In this document: in pieces, positions 58,625 through 58,860 of the stretch
Layout: each line of letters starts with the position of its first letter
Numbering within the stretch: the stretch's first letter is position 1
Assembly (NCBI RefSeq): GCF_056712565.1
Contig: NZ_CM160072.1
Reading direction: 5' to 3' (one strand)
DNA length: 64,000 bases
Program-made: the position numbers and the translations under genes
The notes under the pieces: model-generated
What the model saw: only the letters and a program-made list of their open reading frames with translations
What the model was told of the DNA's origin: nothing
Database searches by the model: none

Positions 58625-58860
58625 GTGGATTTAAATACGCATCAGGTATACACCGCAGCGCCTGATGCGACGCTGCGCGTCTTATCAGGCCTACAAGTTA
58701 AGTGCTGTGTGTAGGTCGGATAAGGCGTTCACGTCGCATCCGACAATAACAGCCTTGCCTGATGCGACGCTGTCGCGTCTTATCAGGCCTACGAGTTCAG
58801 TGCTGTGTAGGTCGGATAAGGCGTTCACGCCGCATCCGACAATAACAACACAGCCTGATG
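58625..58860. repeat. BIME: tandem array of REP units (two near-identical ~95-bp units plus partial third)
   Basis: GCCTGATGCGACGCTG(C/T)CGCGTCTTATCAGGCCTAC...GTAGGTCGGATAAGGCGTTCACG(T/C)CGCATCCGACAATAACA repeated in tandem. Confidence 0.75.

Follow-up and report, generated by a model that had tools for sequence, protein, structure and literature searches.

A tandem BIME-2 element with a variable number of units in the pepA-holC spacer of Escherichia coli

Repetitive extragenic palindromic (REP) sequences and the bacterial interspersed mosaic elements (BIMEs) that they build have been described since the 1980s, and the BIME-2 considered here, in the spacer between holC and pepA of Escherichia coli, is itself already known. 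Two classes of BIME have been distinguished: in BIME-1, one Y palindrome is paired with one Z1 across a long conserved L linker that often carries an IHF site, and BIME-2 repeats Y and Z2 palindromes in tandem, joined by a short S linker and flanked by short linkers (s, l or r), in numbers that differ from strain to strain (Ton-Hoang et al. 2012). The REPs that flank the gene for the E. coli REP-associated tyrosine transposase (RAYT) are Y and Z2 units of BIME-2 (Nunvar et al. 2010). For strain K-12, the allele at this junction is tabulated as 'BIMEs2 ... <holC-<pepA', with a length of 83 bp (Sutormin et al. 2019, Table DS3). We analyzed 64,000 nucleotides of an E. coli chromosome (NCBI RefSeq assembly GCF_056712565.1, contig NZ_CM160072.1), hereafter the window, in which the pepA-holC spacer contains a BIME-2 cluster with four REP hairpins. 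Identity and proposed mechanism taken together, we hold with high confidence that these two tandem units are a BIME-2 and a dispensable intercistronic element of a pepA-holC-valS transcript.

Tandem Repeats Finder reported a single array at 58660-58861 (period 96, 2.1 copies, 90% matches, score 330), made of two tandem units of 96-98 bp that are about 90% identical, and a repeat search returned direct-repeat spacings of 96, 97 and 98 nt together with four palindromes with 14-nt arms. Each unit comprises one Y-type and one Z2-type REP palindrome in opposite orientations, and a partial palindrome stands at either end of the element, the left edge of which (58638-58659) belongs to direct-repeat family D3 and is 74% identical to 58735-58772. 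The original prediction, made from the letters of the window, had placed a tandem BIME at this junction, with two units of about 95 bp that each contain a palindrome pair and a partial third; the alternating Y/Z2 REPs and both units are there, and the partial third is found at 58853-58863. Of the extent proposed for it, 58625-58860, the right end was accurate to within 1-3 nt, but the left end was about 15-35 nt off (the array starts at 58660 and the partial palindrome at 58638). The parts of the element follow in plus-strand order; linkers and partial palindromes carry no strand, and the layout was read from the sequence.

58638-58646: tail of a partial palindrome, CGCATCAGG, at the left edge
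58647-58659: 13-nt linker TATACACCGCAGC at the left edge
58660-58694, minus strand (GTAG-first there): Y-type REP copy 1 (palindrome I4; fits the Y consensus, with a 1-nt loop deletion)
58695-58710: short linker of 16 nt between CTAC and GTAG ends, in the S-type position
58711-58744, plus strand (GTAG-first): Z2-type REP copy 1 (palindrome I8; 1 substitution from the Z2 consensus)
58745-58756: 12-nt linker AATAACAGCCTT, joining the tail ends of Z2 and Y
58757-58792, minus strand: Y-type REP copy 2 (palindrome I6; full-length fit to the Y consensus)
58793-58806: short linker of 14 nt, in the S-type position
58807-58840, plus strand: Z2-type REP copy 2 (palindrome; 1 substitution from the Z2 consensus)
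58841-58852: 12-nt linker AATAACAACACA at the right edge
58853-58863: first 11 nt of a partial third Y head, GCCTGATGCAA, adjoining the pepA stop codon (with the preceding linker in direct-repeat family D1)

The palindromes were typed against the Y consensus GTAGGcatGATAAGaCGcgcCAgCGtCGCATCaGGCA and the Z2 consensus GTAGGacgGATAAGgCGttCACGcCGCATCcGGCA of Nunvar et al. (2010), an alignment that had been proposed as a check on the prediction, and both were matched: each Z copy differs from the Z2 consensus by the one substitution, and both Y copies fit, the first falling short by 1 nt in the loop. With the GTAG foot, this Y/Z2 composition is that of BIME-2 on the published consensus. The plus-strand order of inverted Y, Z2, inverted Y, Z2 gives the alternating orientation of that class, the head linkers of 16 and 14 nt, the tail linkers of 12 nt and the 2.1 copies give its tandem, short-linker arrangement, and the whole element is extragenic, inside a spacer of 256 nt. 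We assign the element to BIME-2 because of these REP types, their alternation and short linkers, the lack of an IHF consensus, a match to the naRNA4 family (the last two are taken up below) and the entry in the table of Sutormin et al. (2019).

Counted with one mismatch tolerated, the REP core GCCKGATGCGRCG has 16 occurrences across the window where 0.7 would be expected by chance, and none of 100 shuffles reached 16; it is a genuine dispersed family and not a chance palindrome. Other REP pairs or BIMEs of the window, at 23486-23564, 29729-29827, 32982-33065 and 62933-62964, have linkers specific to their loci, and single cores lie near 14525, 24579 and 42948.

To follow unit number across the species, 5,426 complete E. 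coli genomes were queried with a joined pair of flanks, which lets the spacer length be taken from how far each hit extends, and 60 genomes were sampled at even steps along the ranking, with the following result.

Spacer of 353-355 nt: 3 units, 28 of 60 genomes
Spacer of 257-260 nt: 2 units, 13 of 60 genomes
Spacer of 159 nt: 1 unit, 4 of 60 genomes, K-12 lineage strains included
Spacer of 132-133 nt: 0 units (no BIME), 15 of 60 genomes, among them CFE299

Sequences fetched from each class confirm the 0, 1, 2 and 3 units; CFE299 gave only a partial match in the survey, and its spacer was examined separately. Unit number had been expected to vary between strains and a comparison at this junction had been suggested, and the survey agrees with that expectation: copy number is variable, as in BIME-2 generally, and it shifts by whole units of 96-98 bp. 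E. coli has 0-3 units and E. albertii 3, while SCPM-O-B-8794, which carries the label E. coli, has 4. When units are aligned with those of the three-unit allele, the single K-12 unit takes its Y loop from unit 1 and its linker, Z2 and tail from unit 3, a chimera as would be expected from one slippage or unequal-exchange event that deleted two units.

The spacer without a BIME is complete in 1,401 of the 5,426 genomes (~26%). It is 133 nt of unrelated sequence, in which an inner hairpin, CCCTCTCCC-TTA-GGGAGAGGG, sits inside an outer inverted repeat, CCTCACCCTAA...TTAGGGTGAGG; examples are L004:1609-1741 (E. coli 2012EL-2448) and L006:3159-3291 (CFE299), which are the counterpart of 58638-58863 in the window. 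Its right-hand ~55 nt are a dispersed repeat found at a median of 3 places per genome, putatively of the Box C type. The Box C-like allele, which a quarter of E. coli genomes carry, probably replaced the BIME-2 at a later time. One BIME-free strain, E. coli WB61 (L007:3109-3363), carries in addition a 122-bp tandem duplication that includes the first 41 nt of holC and the leader, and so has a second, truncated holC start in the spacer.

For the outgroups, a pattern scan anchored on the C-terminus of PepA recovered the junction from 59 species genomes, with holC located downstream in 54, and pepA-holC synteny was kept throughout the genomes compared. E. albertii (3 units) and Escherichia sp. 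MOD1-EC7003 of a cryptic clade (1 unit) have the tandem Y/Z2 element with its flanks and linkers unchanged, and in MOD1-EC7003 the 16-nt linker of 58695-58710 recurs; SCPM-O-B-8794 has its 4 units between the same flanks. We found the element in no genus other than Escherichia among these 59 genomes. Since it stands between the same flanks in E. coli, E. albertii and the cryptic clade, the distribution indicates that the BIME-2 at this junction is ancestral in Escherichia and predates the split of the three. Elsewhere the junction has other repeats or none. A rough count of motifs gives REP-like palindromes of a genus-specific kind in about half of the other genera or species; an element like the enterobacterial repetitive intergenic consensus (ERIC) occurs in S. 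enterica arizonae, Kosakonia and C. amalonaticus (S646), among others, and in these three replaces the conserved holC leader up to the ATG; Pseudocitrobacter (in tandem) and others have Box C-like elements; and some species have only a bare spacer of 67-90 nt. The ERIC-like and Box C-like labels are presumptive, assigned by resemblance to the respective consensus sequences. By these sequence comparisons, intergenic repeats have come to lie between pepA and holC time and again.

The three genes around the element are head-to-tail open reading frames (ORFs), all on the minus strand, so that on the transcribed strand the spacer is 3' of pepA and 5' of holC. Translations of the ORFs and the RefSeq annotation of near-identical loci set the spacer at 58608-58863. 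RefSeq loci 94-99.8% identical to this stretch have valS, holC and pepA annotated, and in these loci nothing was annotated in the spacer by the Prokaryotic Genome Annotation Pipeline (PGAP); the K-12 record NC_000913.3 likewise gives no repeat feature for the holC-pepA spacer. Of the flanking genes, holC encodes the chi subunit of DNA polymerase III and valS encodes valyl-tRNA synthetase.

55309-58164, minus strand: valS (951-aa ORF)
58164-58607, minus strand: holC (147-aa ORF; same annotation in near-identical RefSeq loci)
58608-58637, minus strand: conserved holC leader, ATATGGGGCTTCTTGTGGTGGATTTAAATA on the plus strand (alignment of alleles and species)
58864-60375, minus strand: pepA, leucyl aminopeptidase A (503-aa ORF; near-identical RefSeq loci), upstream of the repeat on the transcribed strand

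The leader ATATGGGGCTTCTTGTGGTGGATTTAAATA is common to alleles with a BIME, alleles without one and many other genera.

At the RNA level, the minus-strand hairpins fold with −20.0 (Y copy 1), −12.0 (Z2 copy 1), −21.9 (Y copy 2) and −19.2 kcal/mol (Z2 copy 2), and on the plus strand Z2 copy 1 forms an RNA hairpin of −16.1 kcal/mol. The RNA fold of the full spacer has −115.3 kcal/mol (z = −7.3 against shuffled controls); this global minimum-free-energy fold pairs distant half-palindromes, and the four local hairpins were used as the relevant co-transcriptional structures. On the pepA mRNA, the first full hairpin is Z2 copy 2 (58807-58840), which begins 23 nt past the stop codon. A REP within about 15 nt of a stop codon reportedly interferes with translation termination by stalling the ribosome; at this distance, such stalling at the pepA stop is not expected. 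A scan of 58100-59100 gave neither an intrinsic-terminator-like hairpin with a T run nor a sigma-70-like site in the spacer, and both a holC promoter inside the BIME and an intrinsic terminator after pepA were thus unsupported. The sole sigma-70-like site in that interval, 58291-58262 on the minus strand (TTGCCA, 18-nt spacer, TAGACT, with an upstream TG), falls within holC, in its 3' part, and may be an internal promoter for valS, which starts about 100 nt further downstream.

A search of the literature on a holC-pepA-valS operon gave nothing relevant. In full-length RNA from K-12, pepA:holC:valS are listed together at a bidirectional terminator downstream of valS (Harris et al. 2026 supplement), and this joint listing therefore implies a co-transcript that reads through the BIME. 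The same preprint reports that REP325, a BIME-2, has two effects, stabilization of the mRNA of yjdM, the gene upstream, and an attenuation, in part through Rho, of the transcription that continues into yjdN, and that ratios of upstream to downstream expression are raised across 146 REP-containing tandem gene pairs, with strong context dependence (Harris et al. 2026). By analogy, the four G+C-rich hairpins of the minus-strand transcript (−12 to −22 kcal/mol, no U tract) would block 3'-to-5' exonucleases, which would stabilize the upstream pepA segment and protect its 3' end; the stabilization of mRNA that the original prediction had attributed to BIMEs is plausible at pepA-holC. The hairpins may also pause RNA polymerase, with partial attenuation of readthrough into holC-valS, probably assisted by Rho, so that pepA expression would be favored over that of holC. 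On this analogy, the element probably both protects the pepA 3' end and lowers readthrough into holC-valS. Any such role would be modulatory, because a quarter of strains do without the element.

At the DNA level, gyrase cuts BIME-2 elements more often than expected, with a preference for Y REPs, and Topo-seq sites have been mapped in the one-unit K-12 allele of this locus (Cfx 2, RifCfx 1, Micro 0, Oxo 2; Sutormin et al. 2019, Table DS3). The gyrase binding that the prediction had ascribed to BIMEs finds a counterpart in cleavage mapped in vivo at the same locus, and the Y palindromes may act as a transcription-independent gyrase site, as published for the K-12 allele only. The presence and spread of the element are probably owed to the REP/RAYT selfish-repeat system, together with local duplication and deletion.

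Several considerations weigh against this account of a BIME-2 acting as intercistronic stabilizer and attenuator. The split between Z1 and Z2 relies on one published consensus, and identical REPtron palindromes are called z1 in one paper and z2 in another. The co-transcript is taken from a gene list in a secondary table and not from primary reads, the stabilizer and attenuator roles are extrapolated from other REPs by analogy, and the gyrase data come from the one-unit K-12 allele, not from the two-unit allele of the window. Finally, with 0-4 units and about a quarter of E. coli genomes without any, the element is dispensable and cannot be needed for any essential function.

Among the other explanations, three concern what the element is or encodes. 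The prediction had also mentioned IHF binding, a property of BIME-1, and the BIME class as a whole does include IHF-binding members, so the element might be a BIME-1 (RIB/RIP) that recruits IHF. A single Y/Z1 pair with a long L linker and an IHF site is not what the spacer holds: units are in tandem, with head linkers of 14-16 nt; the IHF consensus WATCAANNNNTTR has no match in 58608-58863, all four matches of the window being elsewhere; and the K-12 allele is tabulated as BIME-2, not BIME-1. Since the element is a BIME-2 with short head linkers and no IHF consensus, IHF binding is not expected here, and we consider recruitment of IHF by a BIME-1 highly improbable. It is also very unlikely, if slightly less so, that the element encodes naRNA4-like RNAs that bind HU, bridge DNA cruciforms and condense the chromosome, a role proposed for Z2-l-Y units of REP325 as nucleoid-associated RNA (Qian et al. 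2015). The Rfam model of naRNA4 (RF02564), which was built on these Z2-linker-Y units, does match 58714-58789 on the plus strand with 75.4 bits, above the gathering score of 59.5. This passing match, however, is antisense to pepA-holC-valS, with no gene or promoter-like site to drive plus-strand transcription, and on the transcribed strand the score of 51.4 bits is below the gathering threshold. The model also passes at 29729-29806 and 23486-23564 in the window (86.2 and 64.8 bits for the two) and is a recognizer of generic Z-linker-Y modules; in the Rfam alignment, REP325/naRNA4 has an l linker unlike the 12-nt linker AATAACAGCCTT; and deletion or overexpression of REP325/naRNA4 leaves nucleoid volume unchanged, while REP-REP contacts are not enriched (Harris et al. 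2026). With other REP pairs matching, the passing strand antisense and the proposed function contested, the match was rejected as a small RNA (sRNA) gene. There is, finally, next to no chance that a small-protein gene is present, although two ORFs with ATG or GTG starts are open, one of 45 aa (58691-58828, minus strand) and the following:

58665-58880, plus strand: spurious 71-aa ORF, with its ATG inside GCCTGATGCG of Y copy 1 and its end antisense inside pepA

The ATG of the 71-aa ORF is part of the REP consensus itself, and the peptide contains the repeats CRSDKAFTSHPTITALPDA and CRSDKAFTPHPTITTQPDA because a 58-nt segment (58708-58765 and 58804-58861) recurs at a spacing of exactly 96 nt, in frame. 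The frame is open because of the 1-nt deletion in the first Y loop (58660-58694; GCTGCGCG versus GCTGCCGCG) alone. FDAARGOS_536, the best match among the 5,426 complete genomes (99.8% identity), keeps the extra base, with a spacer of 257 nt instead of 256, and neither the 256-nt spacer nor the deletion was seen in any of the 60 sampled genomes; the deletion is either a private mutation or a sequencing error. From the same ATG, 16 aa are read in FDAARGOS_536 and 16-27 aa, in another frame and of different sequence, across FDAARGOS_536, K-12, EDL933, U12A and APEC O78; the frame is broken in all five of these alleles and is not conserved as that of a protein-coding gene would be. A Pfam scan of the 71-aa and 45-aa ORFs gave no match at E <= 1, the exact 71-aa peptide is absent from ~15 billion predicted proteins, and the ORFs are unannotated in the RefSeq loci. 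The 71-aa ORF is thus an accident of the repeat and not a gene, as the original prediction had held, and it should stay out of gene annotation.

A weightier alternative concerns selection and not identity, and it overlaps largely with the explanation that we prefer: the BIME-2 would have no selected function at this locus, being selfish or neutral DNA seeded by REP/RAYT and sized by slippage or unequal recombination, with any effects on gyrase or RNA incidental. The element is highly polymorphic and, as the BIME-free genomes indicate, dispensable, and in other Enterobacteriaceae the junction has unrelated repeats or none, so that what is conserved is the tolerance of insertions and not a sequence. 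Of 1,037 loci that vary among E. coli genomes, 129 are due to palindromic units (Touzain et al. 2010), and in vitro, BIMEs are substrates for cleavage and recombination by RAYT (Ton-Hoang et al. 2012). On the other hand, the element persists with intact hairpins across E. coli, E. albertii and the cryptic clade, its K-12 allele is cleaved by gyrase in vivo (Sutormin et al. 2019), and there is a genome-wide expression bias of REP-containing tandem gene pairs (Harris et al. 2026). We regard the absence of a selected function as a real possibility, though one with somewhat less than an even chance.

A further idea, which we put forward tentatively and as rather doubtful, is that unit number (0-4) is a natural, heritable rheostat of readthrough from pepA into holC-valS, and that across Enterobacteriaceae repeats of no fewer than three unrelated families (REP/BIME, ERIC-like and Box C-like) have repeatedly landed and turned over at the junction. 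Were the rheostat real, lineages would differ in the pepA:holC:valS ratio without changes in promoters or coding sequences. The junction is in any case a clean natural allelic series, in which alleles of 0, 1, 2 and 3 units are each represented by many complete genomes of E. coli, and the 4-unit allele by a single Escherichia genome. In recent work the effect of REP number on expression depended on context, and the series could be used to test the effect of REP number on upstream mRNA stability, readthrough and gyrase recruitment with the context held constant.

Elsewhere in the window, the Rfam family Ysr276 (Yersinia sRNA 276, of antisense type) matches 59623-59817 on the plus strand with 183 bits against a threshold of 100, antisense inside pepA; this match may reflect only the conservation of the pepA coding sequence. 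Other Rfam matches at gathering level, at 39983-40098, 10834-10956, 14324-14381 and 14461-14503, are to a magnesium riboswitch (mgtA leader type) and to the ES239, STnc450 and ES036 sRNAs.

Among known systems, the element shares with BIME-1 (RIB/RIP) its REP palindromes in inverted orientation, an extragenic location and a place at gene 3' ends, but BIME-1 is single-copy, with Z1 and the long conserved L linker with its IHF site. The intercistronic REPs of malEFG and hisJQMP are, like the present ones, hairpins between two co-transcribed genes, and there the upstream gene reportedly has the higher expression because exonucleases are kept from its 3' end; that effect was demonstrated experimentally, whereas at pepA-holC we infer it. 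REP325, between yjdM and yjdN, is the best-studied model of a BIME-2 as stabilizer of the upstream mRNA and partial Rho-dependent attenuator, and it too has a tandem Z2-linker-Y module between two genes of the same direction. It differs in having six 77-nt units, with five identical 'U' spacers between them and another linker sequence, where the pepA-holC element has two units that abut via the short S linker, and the orientation that is sense for naRNA4 falls on the non-transcribed strand at pepA-holC. Closest of all is the K-12 holC-pepA BIME-2, which has the same junction, flanks, Y/Z2 palindromes and linkers, with alternating orientation and tandem, variable copy number. K-12 has one unit in a 159-nt spacer and the window two units in a 256-nt spacer; the private 1-nt deletion in the first Y loop belongs to the window allele and not to that of K-12; and the right-hand end of the window element, AATAACAACACAGCCTGATGCAA, is shared with APEC O78 and Escherichia sp. 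MOD1-EC7003, marking an allele lineage other than that of K-12.

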